In this document: in pieces, positions 13,645 to 44,608 of the stretch | Position numbering within the stretch: position 1 is the stretch's first letter | Layout of the letters: each line of letters starts with the position of its first letter | Assembly: GCA_019421015.1 (NCBI GenBank) | Contig: JAHZGC010000002.1 | Span: 1,619-65,618 of the forward strand | Direction: 5' to 3' | Source of the DNA: Coriobacteriaceae bacterium | GTDB lineage: Bacteria > Actinomycetota > Coriobacteriia > Coriobacteriales > UMGS124 | Length of the DNA stretch: 64,000 bases | The notes under the pieces: model-generated | What the model saw: the letters and a program-made list of their open reading frames with translations, nothing else | What the model was told of the DNA's origin: nothing | Database searches by the model: none | Made by a program: the position numbers and the translations under genes

Positions 13645-14727
13645 TTATGCTGCCTCGGCTTCCGGAGCCGCCTCCGGGACTGTTAGCAGGCTCGCCATCG
13701 CCGGGGCGTCCGCTATCGATCCCCGGTCCTTCTCCACCTGGCCCTTCTGCCCTTCGTCGGGCAGGATCCGCGTCGCGATCTTTGCCATCACTCCGATAAA
13801 GGGCAGCCACAGCAACGTCATGATCACGTTGAACAGCGTGTGGGCGTTGGCGATCTGCCGCGCGACGACCTCGACCTCGGGGCCTGCGGGCGAGACGGCC
13901 TGTACCAGCGCGGCAAACGGCACCACGAGCCAGATGAAGATCAGGCAGCCCGAGAGGTTAAAGAGGCAGTGCGAGGCGGCCACCCGCTTGGCGGGGCGCG
14001 CCAGGGCGAGCGACGCGAGGACGGCGGTGATCGTGGTGCCCAGGTTGTCGCCCAAAAGGATTGGGATCGCGCCCTCCAGGCCCAGGATGCTCGAGGTGCC
14101 GTCGGCGGCGGGCTGGCTCGCGAAGTTCTGGAGCACCGCGATGGTGGCGCTCGAGCTCTGGACCACCACGGTCATGAGGGTGCCCACCGCCACGCCGAGC
14201 ACGGGGATGTGGGCCACCTGCTCGATGAGCGAGAGGAACACTTCGCTTTGGGCCAGCGGCTTCATAGCGCCGCCCATGGTGTCGATGCCCAGGAACAGCA
14301 GGCCAAAGCCAAAGACGGAGCGCCCGATCTCCTTGGTGCGCGCCGAGCGCCCCAGGGTCATGGCCACAAAGCCGACAAACACAAAGAGCAGCACGTAGTC
14401 CGAGAGCTTGAAGGCGATGATCTGGGCCGTGATGGTGGTGCCGATGTTCGCGCCCAGGATGATCGAGATGGCCTGGGGCAGCCCCATGAGGCCCGACGCC
14501 ACAAAGCTGATGGCCATCACGGTCGTGGCGCTCGAGCTTTGCAGCACCGCCGTTGCCAGCGCGCCGGCCAGCACGCCGAGCACGGGGTTGCGGGTCACGG
14601 CCGAAAGGATCGACTTCATGCGGTCGCCGGCCACGCTTTGCAGGCTGTCGGTCATAAGGTTCATGCCGTACAAGAAGAGCGCGAGGCCTCCCAAGAGGCC
14701 GAGCAGGGTGGGAATCGCCGTAGGCAC
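13645..14727 (-). CDS. Na/Pi cotransporter family (NptA-like) membrane protein
   Basis: LFLYGMNLMTDSLQ...LQSSSATTVM...ANIGTTIT repeats typical of Na/Pi-cotransporter II-related proteins. Start set at GTG 14727 after AAGGAG; the ORF-track start 14880 adds an implausible Arg/Pro-rich leader. Confidence 0.75.
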   Translation of the reverse strand: MPTAIPTLLGLLGGLALFLYGMNLMTDSLQSVAGDRMKSILSAVTRNPVLGVLAGALATAVLQSSSATTVMAISFVASGLMGLPQAISIILGANIGTTITAQIIAFKLSDYVLLFVFVGFVAMTLGRSARTKEIGRSVFGFGLLFLGIDTMGGAMKPLAQSEVFLSLIEQVAHIPVLGVAVGTLMTVVVQSSSATIAVLQNFASQPAADGTSSILGLEGAIPILLGDNLGTTITAVLASLALARPAKRVAASHCLFNLSGCLIFIWLVVPFAALVQAVSPAGPEVEVVARQIANAHTLFNVIMTLLWLPFIGVMAKIATRILPDEGQKGQVEKDRGSIADAPAMASLLTVPEAAPEAEAA

Positions 14728-14951
14728 GGTGCTCCTTGCAGGTCGGGGTGGTCGTCCGCGGCGTTCGCAGGAGAGAAGACCGTGGGGGAGAAGCCCTGTG
14801 ATTCGGCCGAGAAGCTCTCGCGACGCGCCGGCGGATGCTTGCCGGGACCAGCATACGGGGGGCGGGCAAAGGATTGGCAAGGGCGGTGTAAAGGCTGCGT
14901 AAAGTCGGGGGAGGGGGTGCGCGGCTGGGGGTCGGGGCTAACGGTTTCGGG

Positions 14952-15245
14952 TGGCGCCAAAGGCGGGTTCGGTAAGGGTTAGCGGATTTGGGTGGCACCG
15001 GACCCGAATTGTGTAAGGGTCAAGTCCGAAGGCTGGCGCCAAGCTCGAGTTTTGTAAGGGGAAGGGCTGGGTGCTGGCACCAAAAGCGAGTTCTGTAAGC
15101 GCGCAATCCGACTTTCCGGACGAGAGGCCCTCGAATTACTTACACAGCGCCGATTTGGTGCCATTCTCACCCACTGATTCTTACAAAACTCTAGTTCGGT
15201 GCCACCATCCCGTTGGCAAGTTTACAGAACTCGCATTCGGTGCCG
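14952..15245. repeat. Phased motif array, family 1, locus A (4 direct + 3 inverted units)
   Basis: TGGC[A/G]CC-N11-12-TGTAAG units start at 14952, 14993, 15034 and 15075. Inverted units start at 15139, 15180 and 15221. Phasing is 41 bp with a 64-bp central step. Confidence 0.9.
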
Positions 15246-15692: not shown

Positions 15693-17612
15693 TTACTTGG
15701 TGTAGCTCACCGGCGTGCCGTCCACCGTGCCCTCGAGGCTCTCGAGCACGTAGTTGTAGACGATCGGGATCTCGTGGGTCGCGGCGATCTCGGCGCCCTC
15801 GGACTCGGTCACGTTCACGACCATCTCCATGGCGTCGATCTTCTGGCCGGTCAGGGCCTCGATCGAGGCAAAGAAGGCATCGTGGGCGCCGTCGCCCTTG
15901 CTCACCGTGCAGGGCGAGTCGGCCGCAGTGATGCCCAGGTCGGCGATGTTGAGCTGGTTGACGATGGTCTTGACCGCGGTGTTGGGGTTGGTGATCGAAG
16001 GCGCCGGGACCTCGGTGGTGCCCACCAGCTCGTGGGCGCAGTTGGCGGCGGTGCGGGCCGAGTTCACGCCGTGGCAGCTCATGGAGCCGTTGATGTCGAG
16101 GCCGTACACGTGGTTGTAGAGCATGCCGCCGTCAGCGCCGATGGCAAAGAGGTTCTCGAAGGCCTGGTCGCGGCCGGGCTTCTTCACGTGGAAGGTGCGG
16201 TCGGTCTTGACGCCGCCCGAGTACAGGCCCTCGAGCGCCCCGCGGATCAGGCCACAGTAGAACGGTGCGGTCTCGATGGGCATGAGGTACTGCGGGTCCT
16301 TGCCGTAGTCGCCGTCGATGCCGTTGGCCACGTGCTCGTTGTAGGTCGCGACCTGGGCCAGGAACAGCTCCTTGTCGACGCCCATGATGTCGGCGAGCTC
16401 CTCGAGGGTGTTGGCGGTGTAGGCGTCGTCGCCCTCGGCCACCATCTCGTCCCACAGGGTGCGGGCCTCCTCGTCGCCGTCGATCATGGCCTCGAGGATG
16501 TTGGCGTCGTACACGGCCCAGCAGGTGCCTCCGGCCAGACGCACGGGCACGTTCTGCAGCTCGAAGTTGTGGGTATAGGTCGAGACGGCCTCGTCGCTGA
16601 AGCGCTCGCCGTTGATGTCGACCCACAGGCTCGGGCCGCCCCAGCACAGCTTGTCCCAGATGGGGCCCCAGGGGCCGGCCGACCCGATGATGTTGGTGCA
16701 GCCAAAGGCCGGGGCGCCGTGGTCGATGCCGCCTGCCTCGATGATCATGTTCACACCGTCGCCGTAGTGGCCCGGGGTGCCGATGATGCGGATGTCCTCG
16801 ATGTCCATGCCCAGGCGCGCCCAGTGCTCGGCGTCCTCGCCAAAGCCGCCGGTGCCCACGATGATGGCGCGGGCGTTGATCTTGACCACGTCGCCGTAGG
16901 TGTCGGTGGCGTAGGCACCGGTCACGTTGCCGTCGGCGTCCTGGGCCAGGCTGCGCACGCGGGTGCCCATGCGCAGGTTCACGCCGTGGTCGGCCATCTG
17001 CTTCTTCATGGCCGGGAAGAAGCCCTGACCGGCGGCGCCGTTGGCGTACACGTAGTCAAAGCTGTACTCGGCACGGTAGCGGCCGGCCTTGTACATCTCG
17101 AGGTAGGCCGGGTCGAGCTCCTCGGTGGGGGTGTACTGCACGCCGTTGTCGATGAGCCACTGCACGTTGTCGGCCGCGTGGCTCACCATGTCGCGGATGA
17201 ACATCTGGTTCACGGTGTAGGCCTGCGACTTGGCCTCGAAGGCCACCATCTCGCCCAGGGTGACGTCGGCCGAGTTGGGGTGCAGGCCAAAGGCGTTGGT
17301 GCACTCGATGCCCAGGCCGTTGCCGCCCAAGAAGGTCTGGCCCTCTGCCAGGATGACCTTGTCGCCGTTCTGGGCCGCCTGCACCGCGGCGCAGGTGCCC
17401 GAGAAGCCGCCGCCCACCACGAGCACGTCGCAGGAGAGCTCCTCGGTGACCTTGCTCTCCCAGTCGTCCCCGGCGCGGGTGGCCACCTCGTACATCACGT
17501 CGTCGGCTGCGGCGTCGGCAAAGGCAAAGGCCGTGGGCACGGTGGCCAGAACGGCCGCGGCGCCGGCGCTCAGGATAAAGTTCTTACGGGTCAGAGCGGT
17601 AGAAGCTGCCAT
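15693..17612 (-). CDS. Exported FAD-dependent reductase (fumarate-reductase-like flavoprotein)
   Basis: Tat-like signal TRKNFILSAGAAAVLATVPTAFAFA. Dinucleotide fold DVLVVGGGFSGTCAAVQAAQNG. Conserved C-terminal FAD segment. Confidence 0.85.
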   Translation of the reverse strand: MAASTALTRKNFILSAGAAAVLATVPTAFAFADAAADDVMYEVATRAGDDWESKVTEELSCDVLVVGGGFSGTCAAVQAAQNGDKVILAEGQTFLGGNGLGIECTNAFGLHPNSADVTLGEMVAFEAKSQAYTVNQMFIRDMVSHAADNVQWLIDNGVQYTPTEELDPAYLEMYKAGRYRAEYSFDYVYANGAAGQGFFPAMKKQMADHGVNLRMGTRVRSLAQDADGNVTGAYATDTYGDVVKINARAIIVGTGGFGEDAEHWARLGMDIEDIRIIGTPGHYGDGVNMIIEAGGIDHGAPAFGCTNIIGSAGPWGPIWDKLCWGGPSLWVDINGERFSDEAVSTYTHNFELQNVPVRLAGGTCWAVYDANILEAMIDGDEEARTLWDEMVAEGDDAYTANTLEELADIMGVDKELFLAQVATYNEHVANGIDGDYGKDPQYLMPIETAPFYCGLIRGALEGLYSGGVKTDRTFHVKKPGRDQAFENLFAIGADGGMLYNHVYGLDINGSMSCHGVNSARTAANCAHELVGTTEVPAPSITNPNTAVKTIVNQLNIADLGITAADSPCTVSKGDGAHDAFFASIEALTGQKIDAMEMVVNVTESEGAEIAATHEIPIVYNYVLESLEGTVDGTPVSYTK

Positions 17613-19777: not shown

Positions 19778-20030
19778 GGGCACCAGGCTCGCGTTATGTA
19801 AGCCTCCGCGGCCCTGGGTGGCACCAACGGCGAGTTCTGTAAGTCCCGAAAGGAGAGAATGGCACCGAATCGGCGTTCTGTAAGTCACGGGGCGCGCATG
19901 TTGCCGGTTTTTGCCCCCCGGTCCTTACAAAACCCGCGTTCGGTGCCGCAGGAAGTCTCGCCGGTTTACACAACTCGCATTCGGTGCCAGCCCTGCCCGG
20001 GCGCCCTTACACAACGCCGGTTTAGTGCCA
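19778..20030. repeat. Phased motif array, family 1, locus B (3 direct + 3 inverted)
   Basis: Direct units start at 19778, 19819 and 19860. Inverted units start at 19924, 19965 and 20006. Same 41/64-bp geometry as locus A. Confidence 0.9.
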
Positions 20031-20064
20031 CCTGCCGGCCGTTGCTGCCTGTTTTCGCCTGCGC

Positions 20065-21550
20065 CTACCCCTTCCCGGTGTCGTAGGCGATGTCGAGCAG
20101 CTCGGACTGGGTGTGGATGCCCAGTTTCTTGTAGATGTGGGTCAGGTGGGTCTTGACCGTGCCTTCGGAGAGATGCAGCTCCCGGCACATGTTCTGCCGG
20201 GTCTCGCCCTTCACGAGCAGAACCAGCACCTCGCCTTCGCGGGCCGAGAGCGCGTATTCCTGGGCGACGTTTGCGCACCGCAGCTCAAGGGCTTCCTGCA
20301 GCATCTTTCCGTTGACGCCTGCGGTGAGGCGGCGCTCGCCGTCGAGCACGAAGGCGTTCAGGTCCTCCTCGCTGCTCGACGACCGCAGGTTCGTGCGATT
20401 GAACGCCTGGGGGTACACCATGCACGCGATGATGATGAGGTAAAAGACGATGAACACGGCCGACTCGGCGGCGGCCATCCGGTGCTCTAGGAACACGCTC
20501 CATACGAGGCCGGTTACGCTGCACGACAGCAAGCCGACACTAAACGCCCGGTAGATGGGCCAGCCCAAAGAGCCGGCAGCGTCGAGGGCCACGACCCAAA
20601 AGAGGATGTGCGCGTAGTTTTCGACCGTGACGAGCAGCCCGTCCACCACCTCGGCCGGCAGCGCGTAGAGCATCTGGCGCGACGACGTCAGGGCAAAGGC
20701 CGTGATGAGCACCAGCAGCGAGCTCTGGTAGCGCAGGGCGAGCGGCTTGCGCTCCTTGGACAAGAAGGTCGCGCGGCAGAGAAGCACCACGAGCAGGCAT
20801 TCGGCCATGGCGGCCAGGATAGACCACGTTTCGCCGGCATACTGGCCGCTGCCGGCGTTGCCCCAGATCCCCACGGTGCTCATGGCCCCGCAGGCTACCA
20901 GGCCCACGCCGGTCATGACGCACAGGGCCACGAAGTAGCGCTGGGCCGCGGCACCTCCCACCTCAGAGGGGGCGGCGGTGCGGCGGGGGCGGCAGTGGGC
21001 AAAGAGCCGGTCCGACAGCAAGAGCGCACCGACGCCCAGGACGGGAAGCGCGTAGGAAGCGACGATGAGCGCGGTCTCGTTCAGCAGGTAGCCGACCGTT
21101 TCCGCAGCCAGGCGCTCGAGGACTTGGGCCGCCACCAGCACGTACAGGGCTTCTCGCCGGGAATCGACGCAGGCGATGTAGGCGTACACGGCCGAGACGG
21201 CCCATATATGGCTGGCCCCTAGGAGCAGGGAGCCTGCGGCGCAGACCAGCAGCGGGTCGAACAGAGACTGATGGAACCCGAACGAGTAGAGCACCGTGCT
21301 GCCCAGCATGAGCCCGAGCACAGCGGGGGCCAGGCGTCCCGGCGACCAATCGATTTGGCGGGGGGAGAAGGGCGAAGAGGGCTGCGACCGCGACGCGCCC
21401 TACGTAGCACGCATAGTGGGCGGCCTCTTTTGCCCGGTCGGTCGCGGAGGGGTCGGCAAAGACGTCGAGGTAGCCGGTTATATCGACCCAGACGCCTATG
21501 AGCACGAGCGCGGCAAGGGACGCAAGCGATGCCCTGTGTTTGGTTAACAT
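20065..21550 (-). pseudogene. Membrane LuxR-family regulator interrupted by a +1 frameshift in a C6 (plus-strand G6) run
   Basis: The N-terminal 63 codons (frame of ORF 20963-21550) and the C-terminal 418-aa body with its LuxR HTH (ORF 20065-21321) join if one base is removed from the G run at 21360-21365. Confidence 0.7.
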
Positions 21551-21755
21551 AGCGTCAACACCTTGCCCCTCTTATCGGACAAACCGGATGATACCGCGCT
21601 TTAGCTGGCATTTGTAGCCCTTTGTCCGATAGGGGCGGCCGACGGGTCGTGCATCATTCGAGCCGTTGCCTACGCCCGGCGCAAACAACGCCCGGGTGCC
21701 CATCGGCGGGGTTGTACCGAAGGTGCCCCCGACTCACGAACCCAAGGAGCTCAAC

Positions 21756-23681
21756 ATGATCGATTGCATCGGTGTCATTGGCGGAGAAGCCCGTTCCCTG
21801 AGCCGCCGCTCGTTCATCGCTGCCGCCGGTGTTGCGGCGGCGGCCGTCCTGGGGCCCCGCACGGTGCTGGCTACCGAGTCGAGCGCACCGGCCGTGCAGA
21901 TGACTCCCGGTGTTTACGAGGTCACGGCCCAGGGATGCTACGCCCCCTACACCGTCGAGGTGGAGGTGTCCGAGGATGCCATTGTGGATGTGCGCGTGAC
22001 CGACACCCACGAGTCCAAGTACATGGGCCAGCGTGCGCAGGAGACCATCGCCAAGAACGTCGTGGAGCACCAGACGGTCAACGTCGACAGCATCACCGGC
22101 GCCACGATCACCACGACGACCATGAAGGACGCGATCCGCCAGGCTTTGACCGAGGCCGGCGCATCGGAAGACATGTTTGCCGACGACGCGGTGACCCCTG
22201 AGCCCGCCGGTGTCGACGGGGAGCTTGCGGAGTTTGCCCCCGACGTCATCGTGGTAGGCGCGGGCATCGCCGGTCTCACCGCGGCTCTTACCGCGGCTGA
22301 CCGGGGGGCCAAGGTGCTGGTCCTGGAGCAGAACACGTGCTTCGGCGGCTCCACCATGTACAGCGGCGGCTACATCGCCGCGGCCGGCGGCACCACGCTG
22401 CCCCAGTACGGCTACGAGACCGACCCCGACCGGCTGTACGCGTGGTTCATGGACGGCGATGAGTCCACGTTCCGTCCCGAGCTCTCGTACGTGGCCGCCT
22501 ACAACAGCGGCGCCGCCCTCGACATGCTGACCAAGTACGGCGCCGCCTGGCTCGAAGGCGGTCCCATCGGCGACGGCGTGGGCGCCCACAGCAACAACGC
22601 CTCCGCGGGCAACTCCACCGAGGGCGTCGACTACTTCGCGGCCTACCTCATCTCCTCGGAGCAGCGCGGCCTGAGCATCTTCGAGGGCACTGCCGACGCC
22701 GTGCAGGGCCTCGTCGACGAGGGCAAGCTGGCCTATGCGCTTAACGCCAAGGTGGTCGAGCTCGTCACCGACGAGGCCGGCGCTGTGGTGGGTGTGCGCA
22801 CCGAGGACGGCGGCGAGTATCGTGCGCCTGCGACGATCCTCTCGTGCGGCGGCTACTGTGCCAACGAGGAGATGCTCTCCGAGATCTACACCCGCTGGGC
22901 GCGCTCGGGCAACTCGAGCTCCATCGGCAACATGTTCGCCGCCGCCACCGCGATCGGTGCCGTGCTGCACGACATGGACTTCTGCCGCACCGACGGCGGC
23001 ACGCTGCCCATGTACGAGGGCAACGGCATGCCCGTGCACCGCGAGATCCAGTTCAAGACCCCCGGCCTGGTGTGGCTCAACACCGACGGCGTTCGCTTCT
23101 GGAAGGAAGGCTCCAGCCCGGCCCGCGCCTACTTCGACACCGACCGCAACACGGTGTACTGCGTTGCCAACCAGGCGCTTCTCGACACCGTCGACATGAT
23201 CTACTACGGTAACTACGCCACCTACGTGACCGACAGCAACAACGAGGAGCTCGAGCGCCTGGCCCAGGAGGGCAAGGTCGTGTTCAAGGGCGAGACCATC
23301 GAGGAGGCGGCCGAGAAAGCCGGGCTTGACCCGCAGGTCGTGGCCGCCGAGATGGCCAAGTACAACGGCTACTGCGCCGCCGGGGTCGACGAGGACTTCG
23401 AGAAGGACGCCAGCGCGCTCATCGCCATGGAGGAGGGGCCCTTCTACATCTTCGAGACCATCCCCAACGTCAAGAACACCTACGGCGGCCTGGTCATCGA
23501 CGAGGGTGCCCGCGTGGTCGACGCCGCCGGCGAGCCCATCCGCGGCCTCTATGCCGCCGGCGAGACCGCGGGCAACTATAACATCGTGCGCCCCACCGCC
23601 TCGTACTACGGCGGCAACCTGCACCGCGGTGCCACCTTTGGCTACACGGCCGCACTGAGCGCCATCGCCGACTTCGCGTAA
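21756..23681 (+). CDS. Tat-exported FMN_bind + FAD flavoprotein reductase (urocanate/fumarate-reductase-like)
   Basis: ATG 21756 after AAGGAG. Tat signal LSRRSFIAAAG. FMN_bind domain with VDSITGATITT. FAD fold DVIVVGAGIAGLTAALTAADRG. Confidence 0.85.
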   Translation: MIDCIGVIGGEARSLSRRSFIAAAGVAAAAVLGPRTVLATESSAPAVQMTPGVYEVTAQGCYAPYTVEVEVSEDAIVDVRVTDTHESKYMGQRAQETIAKNVVEHQTVNVDSITGATITTTTMKDAIRQALTEAGASEDMFADDAVTPEPAGVDGELAEFAPDVIVVGAGIAGLTAALTAADRGAKVLVLEQNTCFGGSTMYSGGYIAAAGGTTLPQYGYETDPDRLYAWFMDGDESTFRPELSYVAAYNSGAALDMLTKYGAAWLEGGPIGDGVGAHSNNASAGNSTEGVDYFAAYLISSEQRGLSIFEGTADAVQGLVDEGKLAYALNAKVVELVTDEAGAVVGVRTEDGGEYRAPATILSCGGYCANEEMLSEIYTRWARSGNSSSIGNMFAAATAIGAVLHDMDFCRTDGGTLPMYEGNGMPVHREIQFKTPGLVWLNTDGVRFWKEGSSPARAYFDTDRNTVYCVANQALLDTVDMIYYGNYATYVTDSNNEELERLAQEGKVVFKGETIEEAAEKAGLDPQVVAAEMAKYNGYCAAGVDEDFEKDASALIAMEEGPFYIFETIPNVKNTYGGLVIDEGARVVDAAGEPIRGLYAAGETAGNYNIVRPTASYYGGNLHRGATFGYTAALSAIADFA

Positions 23682-23753: not shown

Positions 23754-24046
23754 TGGCGCCAAAGAGGGTTCTGTAAGTCCGGGACGCCCCGGGTGGCACC
23801 GAATGCTTGTTTTGTAAGTCTCGACGACCCCGGGTGGCACCAGACGCGAGCTCTGTAAGCCCGGGTAGCGGAATATGGCACCGGATCGGTGTTTTGTAAG
23901 CCCGGGTGTGCGCATAACGCCGGTTTTTGCGTGCGAGTTCTTACAAAACTTGCATCTGGTGCCAGCTTGGGCCAGCTGGCCTTACACAACGCCGATCCGG
24001 TGCCATTGGCTGCGCCGGACTTTTACCAAACCCGTATTCGGTGCCA
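23754..24046. repeat. Phased motif array, family 1, locus C (4 direct + 3 inverted)
   Basis: Direct units start at 23754, 23794, 23835 and 23876. Inverted units start at 23940, 23981 and 24022. Central step 64 bp. Confidence 0.9.
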
Positions 24047-24078: not shown

Positions 24079-25443
24079 CTATCGTCGCCCCCCGAACGGC
24101 CCCTGGTCGCAGCTCGTCTCCACCGCAAAGCGCGCCAGCTCGTCGACGACCACCGCATGTCGCCCTGCAGGGGAAAGCCCCGGCACCCCCAGTATCCCAA
24201 GCGCCCTCCCGAGTTCTTCTCCCAGCCCGCTCTGGGCGAGAAGCCCCGCCACTTGGTCTGCCAGGTCAAAGTAGTACGAGACGGACTCGGGCTTTGAGAT
24301 GCGGTAACGGCAGCCGAACGCGCAGCGCTTGTCGAGGGCCTGGAGCTTGCGGGGCGAGAACGGGTGGCAGTGGCCGGGCTCGTGGAGAAACAGCAGTGTG
24401 GCGGCCGTGCGGTAGGTGGCGCTTGCCGATGGCCGGGCAACGGCGCTGCAGATGAGGCTGCGCTGGCGCTCGATAAGAACGGCGCAGGCGTCCGTGAAGG
24501 GGGCGATGCGCTCCTCAAGCGGGCGGTCGGGGGAGAAGAGCCTGCCGAGGGCACCCCCGAAGACCTCGGGTTCTTGGCTGGTAAAGACGCCCAGCTCCCT
24601 ATAAGCACCCCGGGCGCCGCATTCGTCCAGCAAGGGCGCCCCGTCTTCGAGGCATCGGCCGAGCATCGACGGTAAATCGGGCGTCGCAGGATCCCAGTGC
24701 CGGCCAAAGTCCGCAGCCGCCCGGGCCGACGCCGGGGCCTGGCGGGTGGGGCGCTCCCCCAACCGGTCGAGGAACTCCCGGGCGAGCCCCTCTGTCTGCT
24801 CAGGGTCGATGCGGGGCGCTCGCCTCTGCGGCAGGGCGGGGGTGGCGCCGCGTGCTAGGGCCTCCAGGAACTCGGGGGGCGTGGAGGGCGTGCCTGCTGG
24901 GGGGGCCACCCGCAGGGGGTCGATCCGCCACTGCTGCGTCGCCAGGCCCGTGCGGGCGGGGATTTTGGACCGGGCGACGGCGTCATAGGCGTGAATAAAG
25001 GCGCAGACAAGGGCGTCGCGCTCGTCCGCATCCTCGGCATCGCCGGCGGACAGCCCCATGGCGGCGGCAAACAGGTCCCACAGCCGCTCGATCTCCTCGC
25101 CCATGGTTTTGTCCCGGTGCGAGAACATGCGCACCTGATAGTCCTCGACCTCGGGGCAGTCATAAAACGAGGGGGTCTCAGCTACCTCGAGCTCCAGGGC
25201 TTCGCAGACCAGCAGGAACAGGCGTTCCTTGCGGGCCTCGGGCATGGGGCGGCACCAGGCGGCCATGAAGGTGAAGGGGTCCAGGGCGTCGAGCGCCTCT
25301 CCGGCTTCTACGATGGGGAACTGCACGCAGCAGGTTTCGAGCGCCCAAGAAAGGGAGTCGACGAGCCCCTCTTTGTCGTTGCGGCGCGCGAGCAGCCTCT
25401 TGGCCACCGATCGGTGAGCCTGCGCCCAGCTGGGTTTTTCCAT
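24079..25443 (-). CDS. Hypothetical protein (454 aa), no recognisable domain
   Basis: Long ORF with GC-rich third positions and a GGAGAGGAGA SD before ATG 25443. No TM segments or motifs recognised. Confidence 0.6.
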   Translation of the reverse strand: MEKPSWAQAHRSVAKRLLARRNDKEGLVDSLSWALETCCVQFPIVEAGEALDALDPFTFMAAWCRPMPEARKERLFLLVCEALELEVAETPSFYDCPEVEDYQVRMFSHRDKTMGEEIERLWDLFAAAMGLSAGDAEDADERDALVCAFIHAYDAVARSKIPARTGLATQQWRIDPLRVAPPAGTPSTPPEFLEALARGATPALPQRRAPRIDPEQTEGLAREFLDRLGERPTRQAPASARAAADFGRHWDPATPDLPSMLGRCLEDGAPLLDECGARGAYRELGVFTSQEPEVFGGALGRLFSPDRPLEERIAPFTDACAVLIERQRSLICSAVARPSASATYRTAATLLFLHEPGHCHPFSPRKLQALDKRCAFGCRYRISKPESVSYYFDLADQVAGLLAQSGLGEELGRALGILGVPGLSPAGRHAVVVDELARFAVETSCDQGPFGGRR

Positions 25444-25569: not shown

Positions 25570-26040
25570 TTAGATCTCGATGCTCGGGATCTCCGCGTGG
25601 GCGTCTCCGCCGGCGGCGTTGATGCCCGCCATGCGCCCGAAGGTCACGCAGCGGCCGTGGCCGATGCCGGCGACGAAGGTGGGGTAGTCGCCTGCGCCGA
25701 AGAAGTCGCCGGCGGCCGAGCCGCAGACGTAGAGCCCCTCGATGGGCTGGTCGTCCTCGTCGAGCACGCGGCACTGCAGGTCGGTGCGCAGGCCGCCGCA
25801 CATGGTGAGCAGGCAGGCCTGCAGGTGGCCGGCGTAGAACGGCGGGTTCTTGACCGGGTAGAGGATCTCGGCGCGCTTGCCGAAGTCCTCGTCGTTGCCG
25901 TTGTCGCAGAGCTCGTTGTAGCGCTCGACCTCGGCCACGAACACGGCGGGGTCGCAGCCGATCTGCTCGGCCAGCTCCTCGAGCGTGTCGGCCTGGAAGG
26001 TCAGGCCGCTTTCGAGCTCGCCCTCCAGGGTCGCCTTCTG
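25570..26040 (-). pseudogene. C-terminal remnant of a flavoprotein reductase (5' part deleted)
   Basis: ...ADTLEELAEQIGCDPAVFVAEVERYNELCDNGNDEDFGK...PIEGLYVCGSAAGDFFGAG... aligns with the last ~155 aa of the intact paralogs. There is no N-terminal domain or start. Confidence 0.7.
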
Positions 26041-26074
26041 GGCGTCGATAGGCCGGGGTTGCAACCGGGGTTCC

Positions 26075-26221
26075 ATCGCCGACGAGCACGGTGTGTCGCG
26101 CGAGACCGTGAAGACCCACATCGCCGGCATCTACCGCAAGGTCCACGTCCATTCGCACCAGGAGCTGATCGCCGCCCTCGAGGCGAGGGCGGCCCAGGTC
26201 GAGAAGGACGAGACGACGTAG
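26075..26221 (+). pseudogene. C-terminal stub of a LuxR-family HTH
   Basis: IADEHGVSRETVKTHIAGIYRKVHVHSHQELIAAL is only the second half of a LuxR HTH. The upstream sequence is the opposite-strand reductase remnant. Confidence 0.65.
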
Positions 26222-26254: not shown

Positions 26255-27568
26255 CTATGGCTTCAAACATCCCAGCGGCACCACATATACCCCGTCCGGC
26301 CTGCGATAGGCATAGTGCGTGGGGGTGATGACCAGCAAAAACGACGGCGCGCCCATCACATCGTGGTCGATGCGCCCGGCGAGCTTGAGGAGGTTTGCAG
26401 CCCCCTCGTCCACGAGCGATGCGCCCAGCTTGACCTCCACCAGGCCCCAACGTCCGTCCCGAAGCACGACCGCGGCGTCGGCCTCGAGGCCCGTTGCGTC
26501 GCGGTAGTGGAACACATCCCCTTTGAGCGTCTGGGCGTAGACCCGTAAATCGCGCACGGCCATTGACTCGAACAGGAGGCCCAGGGTGGGAAGGTCTTTG
26601 AGCAGGATCGCGGGGCTGGCTCCAAGTGCGGCCACCGCTAGGGAGGGGTCAACGAAGTGCCTGGTGGGGGTGGTCGCTATCCGGGTCTTTGAGCGTAGCG
26701 ACGGTGTCCAGGCCGGGAGGTCCTCAAAGACGTAGAGGGCTCGCAAGGCCGCCACATAGGAGTCCACCGTTCCGCGCGAGAGCTCGCTTTTTTGGGCCTT
26801 GATGGTTCCGCGAATGGTGGCCATGTCTGCTTGTGTGGCCGTGCACCGCGCGTAGGCCTGCATGATGAGGCGGGCGTACTGGGGATTTCTGCGGGCTCCG
26901 TCCACACGCGATACGTCTTCTTCGGCAACGGCCTCGATGTAGTCGTAGGCGGTTTCGAGCGCGTCTTCACCTCCGAGCACAACGGCTGCCGGCCATCCCC
27001 CACGGCATAGCGAGTAGACCATGGGTTCCAGGTTTCCGGGCGCTGAGCCGCGTATCTCTCCACCGTCAAAGAGCGTCGAAAGCGAGACTTCGCCGCTGGA
27101 CTCCTGCGATTCGAACAACGACATGGGTCTCATGGTGAGAAAAGAGAAGCGCCCTGTGCCCGAGTGCTTTGGACGCTCGTTGGCATGCAGGGGTGTTGCC
27201 GATCCCGTGAGGATAAAACGACTCTTTTCTCCGCTTTGATCGACGGCAAACCGTACGGCATCCCATAGTTGGGGGGCGACCTGCCACTCGTCGATGAGGT
27301 GCGGAGCCGCTCCATCCAAGAGCAACGACGGCTGGGCCTGCGCAGCAATCAGGTTGTTCTCGTAGCTGTTGGGGTCTTGCATGTAGACGGCACTGTTTGC
27401 CTGTCGGGTACAGGTGGCGGTTTTGCCGCACCACTTTGCCCCGCGAACGAGGACTGCGCCCGAGCGATTGAGTTTTCCGGTGAGTTCTTGGTCGGCAAAG
27501 CGAGGTAGATAAGCGGAAGGCAAGATAGCTCCAAAGCGTTGTAGTAAAATACCTGGTAAATAGCTCAA
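26255..27568 (-). CDS. AAA-type ATPase with DUF4143-like C-terminal region
   Basis: YLPRFADQELTGKLNRSGAVLVRGAKWCGKTA (Walker A-like GxxGxGKT variant) and overall similarity to the common stand-alone 'ATP-binding protein/DUF4143' family. TTG start is uncertain. Confidence 0.75.
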   Translation of the reverse strand: MSYLPGILLQRFGAILPSAYLPRFADQELTGKLNRSGAVLVRGAKWCGKTATCTRQANSAVYMQDPNSYENNLIAAQAQPSLLLDGAAPHLIDEWQVAPQLWDAVRFAVDQSGEKSRFILTGSATPLHANERPKHSGTGRFSFLTMRPMSLFESQESSGEVSLSTLFDGGEIRGSAPGNLEPMVYSLCRGGWPAAVVLGGEDALETAYDYIEAVAEEDVSRVDGARRNPQYARLIMQAYARCTATQADMATIRGTIKAQKSELSRGTVDSYVAALRALYVFEDLPAWTPSLRSKTRIATTPTRHFVDPSLAVAALGASPAILLKDLPTLGLLFESMAVRDLRVYAQTLKGDVFHYRDATGLEADAAVVLRDGRWGLVEVKLGASLVDEGAANLLKLAGRIDHDVMGAPSFLLVITPTHYAYRRPDGVYVVPLGCLKP

Positions 27569-27572
27569 TTGT

Positions 27573-27658
27573 GCAGATTGCAGCGTTTCCGTTAGGCAGA
27601 TTGTAGCACTTTCATTGTGCAGATTGCAGCGTTTCCGTTAGGCAGATTGCGGTCTGCC
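27573..27658. repeat. 23-bp tandem repeat x3.7 in divergent intergenic region
   Basis: GCAGATTG[C/T]AGC[G/A][T/C]TT[C/T]C[G/A]TT[A/G][G/T] units start at 27573, 27596, 27619 and 27642. Confidence 0.85.
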
Positions 27659-27737
27659 CCCTTCGCGCGCCGTCCTTCTCGCCCACGAACTGCGCTACAC
27701 TGGGCAGCCACTCCAAAATAATCGGGAGGAGGCCCCC

Positions 27738-31390: not shown

Positions 31391-31521
31391 AGCGTCTTGA
31401 GAACGCCTATGAGGATATTGACGGTCTGGTTGCGACCGGTAGGTATGCTTGGTGATACAAACGACGGCTCTTTGTGCCGCAATATATGCTGGCGGTCGGC
31501 TCTTCAGGGTAGTGCAATTGT

Positions 31522-31841
31522 ATGCAGATGTTCAAGGACCGTCAGGGCGACTTCTGGAAGAGCTGCACGGGCAACCTCAACTTCGGTGCCGCCGAGGGCG
31601 ACGGCATCAAGGCATGCCTGTGGGCCGGCGCATCACCAACGAGTCGATGGACGGCATCGTCACCGATGACGAGTACCGCGCGCTGACCCCCGAGGGAGAG
31701 GTCATCGAGGGCCTTTACGTGACCGGCAACGACTGCGGCTGCAACCACCTCGACAGCTATCCCAACCAGGGCGCCGGCACCTGCTGCGGCCGCAGCGCCG
31801 TAAACGGCATGCTCGTGGGCAAGGCTCTCGCCGCGAAGTAA
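31522..31841 (+). pseudogene. Flavoprotein reductase remnant (two non-contiguous pieces fused out of frame)
   Basis: ...NFGAAEGDGIKACLWAGA (a mid-protein motif) shifts frame near 31625 into ...GIVTDDEYRALTPEGEVIEGLYVTGNDCG...GRSAVNGMLVGKALAAK (the C-terminus). Confidence 0.6.
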
Positions 31842-33416: not shown

Positions 33417-33526
33417 GGGCACCTCTTCTTTGCCGGTCGGTTGTCTCCCATAATACGCCCGATTATGGCTGGCTATGGCGGTACTGCCCGGGATATCGAC
33501 GTTCTCTATGAGCGTGTTTGCGCCCT

Positions 33527-33646
33527 GTTCGCGAACGGTTCGCGCACGGCTGCCCTGTTCGCGAACGGTTCGCGCACGGACGCCCGGTTCGCGAACGGTT
33601 CGCGCACGGACGCCCGGTTCGCGAACGGTTCGCGAACGGACGCCTA
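33527..33646. repeat. 30-bp tandem repeat x4 containing palindrome GTTCGCGAAC
   Basis: Units start at 33527, 33557, 33587 and 33617. Each unit reads GTTCGCGAACGGTTCGCG[C/A]ACGG.... The last unit overlaps the PFOR stop codon. Confidence 0.9.
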
Positions 33647-37662: not shown

Positions 37663-37782
37663 TGGCAAGAAATTCGAGATATCAGGATGTTTTACATGCT
37701 TGGAGGGCCTCTGTCATCCTGATATCTTGCATTTTTTGCCAATGGGGCCGGAAAACTTCCTGATTTATCGCAATTCTTGCCA
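37663..37782. repeat. Phased motif array, family 2, locus F (1 direct + 2 inverted)
   Basis: TGGCAAGAAATTCGAGATATCAGGA at 37663. Inverted TCCTGA...TTGCCA units start at 37717 and 37758 (41 bp apart). Confidence 0.8.
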
Positions 37783-37860
37783 GCGGTCCTCGCCCCCCGG
37801 GTAAATCATGAAATGGAGGCGAGACCGCCGACAGCGTGCCGGGATTCCCCCAGGTCGAGC

Positions 37861-38072
37861 TGACACCAAACTGGCGTTCTGTAAGTGGAATCGACCTGTG
37901 TTGGCACCGAATACGAGTTTTGTAAGCAGGGTCGGGGGCTTATCGCCCAAAATCGAGGGCCCGGGCTTACAGAACGCCGGTTTGGTGCCACTTTCCGCTC
38001 GACGGGCTTACAAAACTCGCATCCGGTGCCAACGCGCGCCCCGCGCCCTTACAAAACTCGCATTTGGTGCCG
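37861..38072. repeat. Phased motif array, family 1, locus D (2 direct + 3 inverted)
   Basis: Direct units start at 37861 and 37902. Inverted units start at 37966, 38007 and 38048. 41/64-bp geometry. Confidence 0.9.
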
Positions 38073-38174
38073 CGAGCCACCTGTCGGCCAACCCGCCGAC
38101 CACCCACCAGCCGGCCGCCAACCATCCCACCCGGCCACCCCATCCGGCGTCCCACGCCGTCCGCCTGTGCGCTC

Positions 38175-43325: not shown

Positions 43326-44171
43326 ATGAAGACAACAACTGCGCATCGTGTGGCCGCTTTAACCGGTTCGGCGCTCATGCTGGCCGGGATGGGCGCGGGA
43401 GGGGGTTTTGCCTCTGCGGGCGAGGCCCCGGCCACCGTTTCCCAAGAGGGCGTGTTTCAGAAGGTTGCTGCCGATAAGGGCGCTGTGGCCAAGGCCCCAG
43501 CCGTCGCCAGAACGTTTGCCTACAGCCAGGGTGCGCCTGCTTCCATCGACACGATCGCCCGGGTCATGGGCACACCTCGATACGCCCGCAGCTCCACCTA
43601 TGCGGGTGCCCCGCAGAGCCTCAACGCCCTGGACTGGACCATCGAGGTGGGTGGCGCCGTAGAAAACGAGTTTGTCGCCACGGTGGGCGATCTGGTAGAG
43701 AACGGACCCATGAACATCGTCATGGGTTGCAGCTGTGCGAGCAACCCGGCCAACGGCGTGGCCTCCGCGGACACCGACGTGAGCGGTGTCATGTTTCGCT
43801 CCATCGTCGATGCGGCCAACCCTGACGCTGGGGTAAACACTGTGGTCTTCACCTCGGCGGACGGCTACGAGGTGGCGCTTCCCCTGCGCTATTTGGACCA
43901 GCGCTACTCCCTCATCGGGTTCGACGTTAACGGCCAGCCGCTGAGCGATTCCATGGGCGGCTCCAACCAGCTTTGGCTCTCGGGCACCTCGGCCAACAAC
44001 CACGCTTTGTGCGGTTGGTCGGCCCCACAATCTCCCCCTGGGTCGCGGGGCCGAGGACGCTTGCCCGCCATGGCAAGAAACCACGGAAATCAGGATGCCG
44101 GCCGGGTCTTACGGCAGGAAATCAAACTAATCAGGATGTTCGGGGGTTTACGGTGGCAGAAAATGGCATAA
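43326..44171 (+). CDS. Secreted molybdopterin-oxidoreductase-domain-like protein (Oxidored_molyb/YedY-like); 3' end uncertain
   Basis: Signal peptide MKTTTAHRVAALTGSALMLAGMGAGGGFASA. WTIEVGG...FVATVGDL...MGCSCASN...VVFTSADGYEVALPL...FDVNGQPL...GGSNQLWL pattern. The last ~45 codons run into repeat array G. Confidence 0.55.
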   Translation: MKTTTAHRVAALTGSALMLAGMGAGGGFASAGEAPATVSQEGVFQKVAADKGAVAKAPAVARTFAYSQGAPASIDTIARVMGTPRYARSSTYAGAPQSLNALDWTIEVGGAVENEFVATVGDLVENGPMNIVMGCSCASNPANGVASADTDVSGVMFRSIVDAANPDAGVNTVVFTSADGYEVALPLRYLDQRYSLIGFDVNGQPLSDSMGGSNQLWLSGTSANNHALCGWSAPQSPPGSRGRGRLPAMARNHGNQDAGRVLRQEIKLIRMFGGLRWQKMA

Positions 44172-44293
44172 AACCTCGTAAATCAGGAAATTTACCAGGC
44201 ATTTGGACTGGTCGGCTACCATCGGGTTCCTGATTTCTCATGTCTCTTGCCGTTCGGTACCTTGGGCATCCTGATTTCCCGGACTTTTTGCCA
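44071..44293. repeat. Phased motif array, family 2, locus G (3 direct + 2 inverted)
   Basis: Direct units start at 44071, 44112 and 44164. Inverted units start at 44228 and 44269. Steps are 41, 52, 64 and 41 bp. Confidence 0.85.
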
Positions 44294-44355: not shown

Positions 44356-44608
44356 TGGCACGAAACTGGAGTTATGCAAGGGGGCAGAGCGTCCACTGGT
44401 ACCGAATGCGAGTTTTGTAAGGGTGCCCGGAGCCATCTGGCACCAAATCGGAGATATGAAAGGGCTCGCGGACAAAAACCGGTATCGTGCGTGCTCCCGG
44501 ACTTACAAAACTCGCGTCTTGTGCTATCTCCGCGCCTCTTGGCTTACAGAACCCGCATTCGGTGTCACCTCCCTCCCCGGGGGCTTACACAACTCGCGTC
44601 CGGTGCCA
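44356..44608. repeat. Phased motif array, family 1, locus E (3 degenerate direct + 3 inverted)
   Basis: Direct units start at 44356, 44397 and 44438. Inverted units start at 44502, 44543 and 44584. 41/64-bp geometry. Confidence 0.85.

Follow-up and report, generated by a model that had tools for sequence, protein, structure and literature searches.

Transposon ends with arrayed transposase sites are known from Tn5090/Tn402, Tn7, Mu and IS21, from the IR/DR ends of Sleeping Beauty, and from derived MITEs. In such ends, asymmetric sites of ~20-25 bp that mostly start with TG occur two to four per end, direct within an end and inverted between the two ends; the motif is lineage-specific, several related families can share a genome, and presence varies by strain. 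We found the same features in a set of non-coding arrays in a 64-kb stretch of a Coriobacteriaceae genome, the whole of which is referred to as the window herein. The sites of the main family, family 1, are likewise direct within an arm and inverted between arms, and the window holds five family-1 arrays, each with 2-4 direct and three inverted copies of TGGCACCRAAYNSGMGTTNTGTAAG:

Array A, 14952-15245, no strand assigned: four direct and three inverted 25-bp units at a 41-bp period; starts + 14952, 14993, 15034, 15075 and - 15139, 15180, 15221; 39-bp centre 15100-15138.
Array B, 19778-20030, no strand assigned: 3 + 3 units; starts + 19778, 19819, 19860 and - 19924, 19965, 20006; centre 19885-19923 with CCGGTTTTTG at 19904-19913.
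Array C, 23754-24046, no strand assigned: 4 + 3 units; starts + 23754 (a 24-bp unit), 23794, 23835, 23876 and - 23940, 23981, 24022; centre 23901-23939 with CCGGTTTTTG at 23920-23929.
Array D, 37861-38072, no strand assigned: 2 + 3 units; starts + 37861, 37902 and - 37966, 38007, 38048; centre 37927-37965.
Array E, 44356-44608, no strand assigned: 3 + 3 units, more degenerate; starts + 44356, 44397, 44438 and - 44502, 44543, 44584; centre 44463-44501 with CAAAAACCGG at 44473-44482.

A first-pass annotation of this DNA had placed seven units in array A, with 41-bp steps and a 64-bp central step, and had reported the same motif, phasing and central step at four further loci. All of these units lie where they had been placed, and the steps are 41 bp and the central step 64 bp throughout, the sole exception being the outermost unit of array C, which is one base short. 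The elements span 212-294 bp, have two opposed arms and carry no coding signal. As the annotation had proposed a motif scan against a shuffled control, we note that TGGCRCC-N11-12-TGTAAG has 17 exact matches in the window, versus 0.01 expected from shuffles, and that all 17 are confined to the five loci; when up to two mismatches were allowed, every unit listed in the annotation was recovered. The top self-similarity lag of the window is also 41, with 227 positions versus 121 positions for the next lag, which belongs to an unrelated 30-bp tandem repeat. The motif and phasing of the family-1 arrays are far beyond chance.

The consensus TGGCACCRAAYNSGMGTTNTGTAAG derives from 36 family-1 units, and ~20 of its 25 positions are informative. 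The outer half-sites are conserved, as had been suggested, yet conservation is not limited to them. Position 1 is T in 30 of the 36 units and position 2 is G in 35, with several outermost units beginning with C or G. At position 13, 24 units have C and 12 have G, which defines the two core types that the annotation had recognised. Its further observation that the innermost pair always mixes the types was correct for all five window arrays and extends to a sixth family-1 array, in the sister strain L007 (chance ~0.008 for six of six, given the type frequencies). Oriented by the core-type pattern, most arrays read [..1] centre [2,1,1]. Relative to this pattern, CAAAAACCGG in the centre of array E is inverted when compared with arrays B and C and the L007 array. 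It looks as if the 39-bp centre alone had flipped, and the array E centre has the same orientation in L007 as in the window.

Between arrays, the units are 75% identical. The spacers, which had been called unrelated, are at the random level, with 32% identity against 29% expected from composition, and the flanks are 30% identical. The centres are 35% identical overall, but the figure is 49-64% among array B, array C and the L007 array, all three of which have CAAAAACCGG at a constant offset. Although the spacers are saturated, none of 24 spacers and none of six centres has changed in length. As unit likeness is the same within an array (19.0/25) as between arrays (19.1/25), each unit is held to a common consensus and not copied locally, and local tandem duplication or homogenisation was rejected on this basis. 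The k-th left and k-th right units agree at 18.5-19.7 of 25 positions, versus 19.1 for random unit pairs, and hence show no covariation across the arms. Taken together, these two results mean that neither local copying nor selected arm complementarity explains the pattern. The spacers and the 39-bp centre are also non-complementary, in agreement with the earlier statement that the arms are not truly self-complementary. In orthologous arrays of different strains, 22 changes were counted in 425 unit positions and 21 in 176 spacer positions (Fisher p = 0.005), a unit rate roughly half that of the spacers, with most of this comparison coming from locus E, whose L007 orthologue is 16.6% diverged (units 12.7%, spacers 28%). 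The slower change of the units in place suggests that they have a role beyond past mobility.

Family 1 is one of at least four related array families. Family 2, also in the window genome, has 24-bp units (TGGCAA-N12-ATCAGG), a 41-bp period and opposed arms. Families 3 and 4 are found in a sister species (GCA_029782595.1), which is without families 1 and 2 and whose pyruvate:ferredoxin oxidoreductase (PFOR) and reductase are 83% and 93% identical to those of the window. The arrays of these families are as follows:

Family-2 array, 37663-37782, no strand assigned: 1 + 2 units, between array D and the PFOR gene start.
Family-2 array, 44071-44293, no strand assigned: 3 + 2 units with steps of 41, 52, [65] and 41 bp, 62 bp from array E.
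Family-2 array, L007 23301-23512.
Family-3 copies, L008 4194-4324, 9862-9992, 13163-13293 and 14575-14705, and L005 10931-11061.
Family-4 element, L005 8640-8860: unit TGGCGGATT...GTGTACGA, two direct and one inverted, 3' of PFOR in the sister species.

The family-2 array near PFOR has 1 + 2 units in the window (with a single unit, 37663-37686, on the PFOR-proximal arm) versus 4 + 2 in L003, L006 and L007, and this strain difference is an exact indel of 123 bp (3 x 41). Two of the three family-2 arrays have a family-1 array as neighbour, 62-78 bp away; the order of the two is the same in both cases and the linker is partly conserved (CGGGTA...ATGGAG), which suggests that the adjoining arrays form a composite element. 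The family-3 unit (TGCCAAAAC...GTGTACG, 25 bp) occurs as 2 + 2 units, at a period of 32 bp and with 42 bp for the inner step, giving an intergenic imperfect palindrome of 131-150 bp. Five copies occur in 28 kb, and since they are near-identical over their whole length, spacers and centre included, they imply recent spread. At the position that corresponds to the sister-species family-4 element, directly 3' of the PFOR stop, the window has four tandem copies of a 30-bp unit, GCCCKGTTCGCGAACGGTTCGCGCACGGAC, with the palindrome GTTCGCGAAC in each (33512-33640).

Families 1, 2 and 3 share the frame TG(G/C)CA.... The first 16 positions are common to families 1 and 2, and families 1 and 3 have in common the TG(G/C)CA start and TGTA at positions 20-23 of the 25-bp unit; the shared frame would fit related two-part binding proteins. 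At two loci, the sister species has arrays of a different family at equivalent positions, one 3' of the reductase gene and 5' of the Na/Pi gene, and the other upstream of an unknown gene of 613-634 aa. In ~90 kb from four more distant relatives (L004, L009, L015 and L016), none of the four families and no comparable array was found. The arrays are restricted to a narrow clade of two sister species.

Spacings near whole helical turns are a feature of all four families. They are 41 and 64 bp in family 1, 41, 52, 54, 55 and 65 bp in family 2, and 32 and 42 bp in family 3, and all of them are within ~1/4 turn of whole helical turns at 10.5 bp per turn. The family-2 variants differ by 10-11 bp, and families 1 and 3 differ by 9 bp in period and 22 bp in centre. 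Array lengths thus vary only by whole turns, which would be expected if the bound proteins need to occupy a single duplex face. The conservation results speak for a protein that recognises duplex DNA on one helical face rather than for a hairpin of RNA or DNA. The annotation had already proposed a binding site repeated on one DNA face, and the phasing, the slowly evolving units, the fixed lengths and the lack of covariation are consistent with this proposal, the binding itself being what we infer from them. The best-supported mechanism would be that a dedicated protein, specific to the lineage, binds cooperatively to the phased sites of the two arms.

The window is 65% G+C, and its genes were mapped from frame-specific GC3. 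By Pfam, they include FAD/FMN reductases, membrane LuxR (GerE) regulators, PFOR, a CoA-transferase and ferredoxin-domain proteins, and the best named relatives of the window PFOR are from Adlercreutzia and Eggerthellaceae (~64% identity), which identifies the organism as an uncultured member of the Eggerthellaceae. All five family-1 arrays are intergenic. Array A lies between the stop of a FAD reductase gene (15693-17612, -) and a Na/Pi cotransporter gene (13645-14880, -). Array B is 35 bp from the stop of one LuxR gene (20065-21321, -) and upstream of another (17939-~19580, -), and 103 bp separate array D from the CoA-transferase stop. Arrays A, B, D and E are located between co-directional genes, 35-448 bp from the stop codon of the upstream gene. 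Since array C lies between convergent gene ends, with the stop of 21666-23681 (+) on one side and that of 24079-25443 (-) on the other, it is not in a promoter region. One family-2 array in L007 is also at convergent ends, and no array lies between divergent genes. Apart from array A (448 bp), the distance to stop codons is 33-140 bp. Orientation with respect to flanking transcription is not fixed, as arrays A and B differ. Pfam searches of the window revealed no transposase, recombinase, integrase or cas gene and no candidate binding protein. Short ORFs at 25570-26130 and 31449-31841 match only the C-terminal part of FAD_binding_2 reductases and are likely gene remnants, which fits frequent rearrangement of reductase modules.

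Several known identities were tried and rejected. A sigma-54 promoter (TGGCAC-N5-TTGC) does not fit, as in the consensus of type-1 units the GC is 2 bp too close, and type-2 units have CGGC in place of TTGC as the -12 element. A scan of the array D region revealed no sigma-70 promoters in the units. A CRISPR array, with near-identical direct repeats in one orientation and spacers of 21-72 bp, is contradicted by the two orientations, the 16-bp spacers, the 75%-alike units and the absence of cas genes from the window. The element ends are TGGCACC / GGTGCCA in family 1 and TGCCAAAAC / GTTTTGGCA in family 3, and the window has no integrase, so that an integron attC was also rejected. As for a REP/BIME unit, the family-1 consensus contains no more than a weak dyad of 6 bp, in which one mismatch is fixed, and the family-3 unit has none, and units form two opposed blocks instead of alternating. 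No tRNA gene was found, which rejects a tRNA-linked element, and no known RNA family is present, with 0 Rfam matches at gathering score across the whole window. The annotation had noted that the pattern does not look like a hairpin RNA, a CRISPR array or coding sequence, and we reach the same view from the lack of covariation, the two orientations and the lack of coding signal.

Loci D and E are also present in L003, L006 and L007, and locus B in L012 and L018. As these are independent assemblies of the same species from other samples, the arrays are not an assembly artefact. Array D is identical to that of the window at every aligned base in L003 and L007 and differs at 3/212 positions in L006. 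L007, which is ~99% identical to the window, has its sixth family-1 array (20006-20258) at a synteny break relative to the window. Array A is specific to the window strain, and three other strains (L011, L012 and L018) have an AAA_14-DUF4143 gene at the site. Between the reductase stop and the Na/Pi gene there is a sharply bordered hot spot with strain-variable content, consisting of array A plus 319 bp in the window, and of a family-3 copy, two genes and a second family-3 copy in direct orientation in the sister species. In L008, two direct family-3 copies flank a 3.3-kb two-gene segment that is missing in other strains. The family-3 copy of L005 combines these two: its left flank and outer left unit are those of one flanking copy, and its right arm is exactly that of the other. 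The comparison of sister strains that the annotation had called for therefore revealed differences in array presence as well as variation in unit number by 3 x 41 bp. No clean 'empty site' for array A or B was found in other strains, which have the AAA_14-DUF4143 gene or a different upstream gene instead. In two relatives, the spacer between CoA-transferase and PFOR holds another ATPase-like gene and no arrays, and the orthologous PFOR upstream region of relatives is without arrays. As for target-site duplications, a 5-bp repeat, CGAGC, flanks array D exactly at its unit borders (37856-37860 and 38073-38077); no flanking repeat was found at A, B, C, E or the L007 family-1 array, and family 3 shows no evident duplication. 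An autonomous copy, in which a gene would lie between the two arms, was not encountered.

When genome contigs were scanned for a two-unit pattern, the only match was a chance one within Butyrivibrio coding sequence. No array was matched in viral contigs, plasmids or phages, and the metagenome scan gave one true array, truncated at a contig end. This array (L002 10991-11056) consists of two family-1 units at the very end of contig OGPW01002286.1, the remainder of which is mixed and of lower G+C (42-63%) and could represent either a mobile island or an assembly chimera.

Two other features recur in these regions. Genes for AAA ATPases, either AAA_14-DUF4143 or AAA_16-like (window 26255-27660; L012 4648-6040; L005 3683-4860; L004 19330-20500), come and go between strains at intergenic hot spots that hold arrays elsewhere. 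Each is preceded by its own short direct repeats with a 19-23 bp period, such as GCAATCTGC... in the window, and these genes may be mobile themselves. A conserved non-coding segment, TGCTGCAAACYCTTGGGTGYCATCTTAGCCAARCGG...GCATGCGGGAA, is found in varied contexts (L012 4500-4570, L011 5720-5790, L018 7130-7200 and L008 13030-13090), and its GGGTGCCATCTT stretch is the left flank of two family-3 copies. As GGGTGCCATCTT, common to the family-3 left flank and the L012 junction, is part of this other segment, it was rejected as an array feature.

The clade limits, the near-identical family-3 copies, the strain-specific array A and the variation by 3 x 41 bp indicate that the arrays behave like mobile DNA, and they are probably mobile interspersed repeat elements. 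Since their geometry is that of arrayed-site transposon ends with 39 bp between them, the explanation that we place first, with a probability of roughly 0.45, is that they are a modular non-coding interspersed element that is a cargo-less (MITE-like) or domesticated relative of a transposon with arrayed transposase sites. Such an element would act as duplex DNA, with each 25-bp unit serving as the asymmetric recognition site of one lineage-specific DNA-binding protein. The whole-turn spacing of the units would line the bound proteins up on one face, and the opposed arms, with 2-4 and three sites, would face each other across a short centre that is asymmetric and contains an A-tract, which could allow them to be bridged into one higher-order complex. 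The protein binding, arm synapsis and transposon ancestry are all putative. Several findings speak against this reading: the window encodes no binding protein, transposase or recombinase, no autonomous copy and no consistent target-site duplication are seen, the outermost units often lack T at the first base so that TG...CA termini are not strict, and the family-1 spacers are dissimilar, unlike those of a recently spread MITE.

The main rival, which we consider rather unlikely, is that the sites are owned by the host and have no link to a transposon. A nucleoid-associated, topological (gyrase/BIME-like) or boundary protein would coat the phased sites at transcription-unit ends and would organise or insulate neighbouring gene modules. 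The constraint on units and geometry in place is consistent with this idea, as are the location of arrays close to stop codons (33-140 bp, A 448 bp) with two at convergent ends and none between divergent genes, the variable orientation relative to flanking transcription (A versus B), and the presence of other-family arrays at two equivalent positions in the sister species. Host-owned sites would, however, be at odds with the very narrow clade and the array-free PFOR upstream region of relatives, with several motif families per genome, with strain-dependent presence, with the recent spread implied by family 3, and with a window that encodes no candidate protein. Positional evidence also bears on a regulatory role, in which the arrays would be promoter-upstream activator sites for the PFOR, Na/Pi transporter, LuxR and ferredoxin protein genes. 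Of the five arrays, four are followed downstream by a co-directional gene, a family-1 and a family-2 array both occur upstream of PFOR, and unit number differs between strains. Since array C and the L007 family-2 array lie between convergent gene ends, no array occupies a divergent promoter region, PFOR and other genes have array-free orthologues in relatives, and the one region scanned, around array D, has no promoter-like hexamers, we regard this role as highly improbable.

Folding of the arms into a long interrupted hairpin, in transcribed RNA or single-stranded DNA, would allow the element to stabilise or terminate the upstream mRNA, or to serve as substrate of a hairpin-binding enzyme in the style of REP/RAYT, ERIC or Correia elements. 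Relative to shuffles, the family-3 element does fold much better (-84 kcal/mol, z = -10) and array B, as a single strand, folds better (z = -4.9), and the arrays are at gene 3' ends; but any inverted arrangement would fold better than shuffles. Moreover, paired units are no more complementary than random pairs (18.5-19.7/25 versus 19.1), the innermost pair always combines different core types, the spacers and 39-bp centre are not self-complementary, spacers of exactly 16 bp exceed what a hairpin needs, and orientation relative to transcription varies. With no Rfam match, and with one terminator-like site in the array D region, the region scanned, at a chance level of 0.9, a hairpin function seems improbable. 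We judge equally improbable that the arrays are attC- or attP-like sites at which a site-specific recombinase inserts, excises or exchanges reductase/LuxR modules. Arrays do lie at module boundaries, the two-gene segment of L008 lies between direct family-3 copies, the L005 copy combines parts of both, the synteny break between the window and L007 adjoins an array, and the centre of array E is inverted relative to its arms. Yet there is no recombinase gene near any array, the units are asymmetric with neither an R''/R' core (RYYYAAC/GTTRRRY) nor a dyad core site, any intergenic repeat will be found where modules adjoin, and ordinary deletions also arise between direct repeats.

In Eggerthellaceae, the sets of reductase/LuxR gene modules are very large and highly variable, and they determine how drugs and dietary compounds are transformed by gut bacteria. 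As an element that is found at module borders, varies by strain and has a strict predicted docking geometry, the array is a concrete candidate for a role in the expansion and reshuffling of these sets. A more speculative proposal, which we think unlikely, is that a dedicated protein on phased sites at reductase/LuxR module borders forms a genome-organising system of the Eggerthellaceae clade, its complexes being boundaries or exchange points that drive cassette-like module gain, loss and shuffling; if true, this would be a previously unrecognised, non-integron cassette system. If the arrays are purely selfish, they would be an unusually clear case of a bacterial repeat in which sites and spacing are conserved and the intervening sequence is randomised. 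In addition, the four related motif families form a natural series with which to look for the cognate proteins.

Despite the features shared with arrayed transposon ends, the arrays differ from them in having only 39 bp between the arms and no transposase gene, in their strict 41-bp regularity, and in the absence of a consistent target duplication. They also keep the sites while randomising the spacers, and have no sequence similarity to known ends. Enterobacterial BIME/REP elements are similarly species-specific intergenic mosaics, mostly at gene 3' ends, with a short unit of two types, linkers of fixed length and a strain-variable number of units. They are bound by proteins (gyrase, IHF and Pol I), a property that we infer for the arrays. 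REP units are, however, palindromic and alternate, whereas the array units are asymmetric and form two opposed blocks without hairpin covariation. The BOX elements of Streptococcus pneumoniae are also modular, non-coding and interspersed, with a variable number of internal module repeats and mutually complementary outer modules; in contrast to the arrays, they repeat only the middle module, in one orientation, have copies that are alike over their whole length, and are thought to act as RNA. Palindromic MITEs of the ERIC/Correia type resemble family 3, which is an intergenic imperfect palindrome of 131-150 bp with near-identical copies, but have simple terminal inverted repeats and target duplications without internal phased sub-repeats, and family-1 copies have only their units in common.

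Phased sites on either side of a centre are also found in plasmid centromeres and iterons such as R1 parC and P1 parS, the latter with a central IHF bend. P1 parS shares with the arrays a two-part recognition motif, and its arms are bridged across the bend, as those of the arrays may be. Whereas these plasmid sites are single loci beside par/rep genes, the arrays are multi-copy and chromosomal, with no par/rep genes nearby and no plasmid match. Integron attC sites, for example the Vibrio VCRs, are imperfect palindromes that are species-specific and located at module 3' ends, and they have two binding boxes per arm, as family 3 putatively does. The arrays differ from them in that they have no RYYYAAC/GTTRRRY cores, no integrase gene was found, and the modules that they border are multi-gene and in both orientations. 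A literature search and the Rfam, phage, plasmid and viral collections gave no description of phased opposed-arm arrays. The annotation's claim that no element of this architecture has been described thus stands for the exact combination of opposed phased multi-unit arms, fixed geometry, randomised spacers and co-existing families. It does not extend to the kind of element, as the arrays are interspersed intergenic repeat elements, a kind that is already known and has its counterparts in transposon ends, BIME, BOX and P1 parS.
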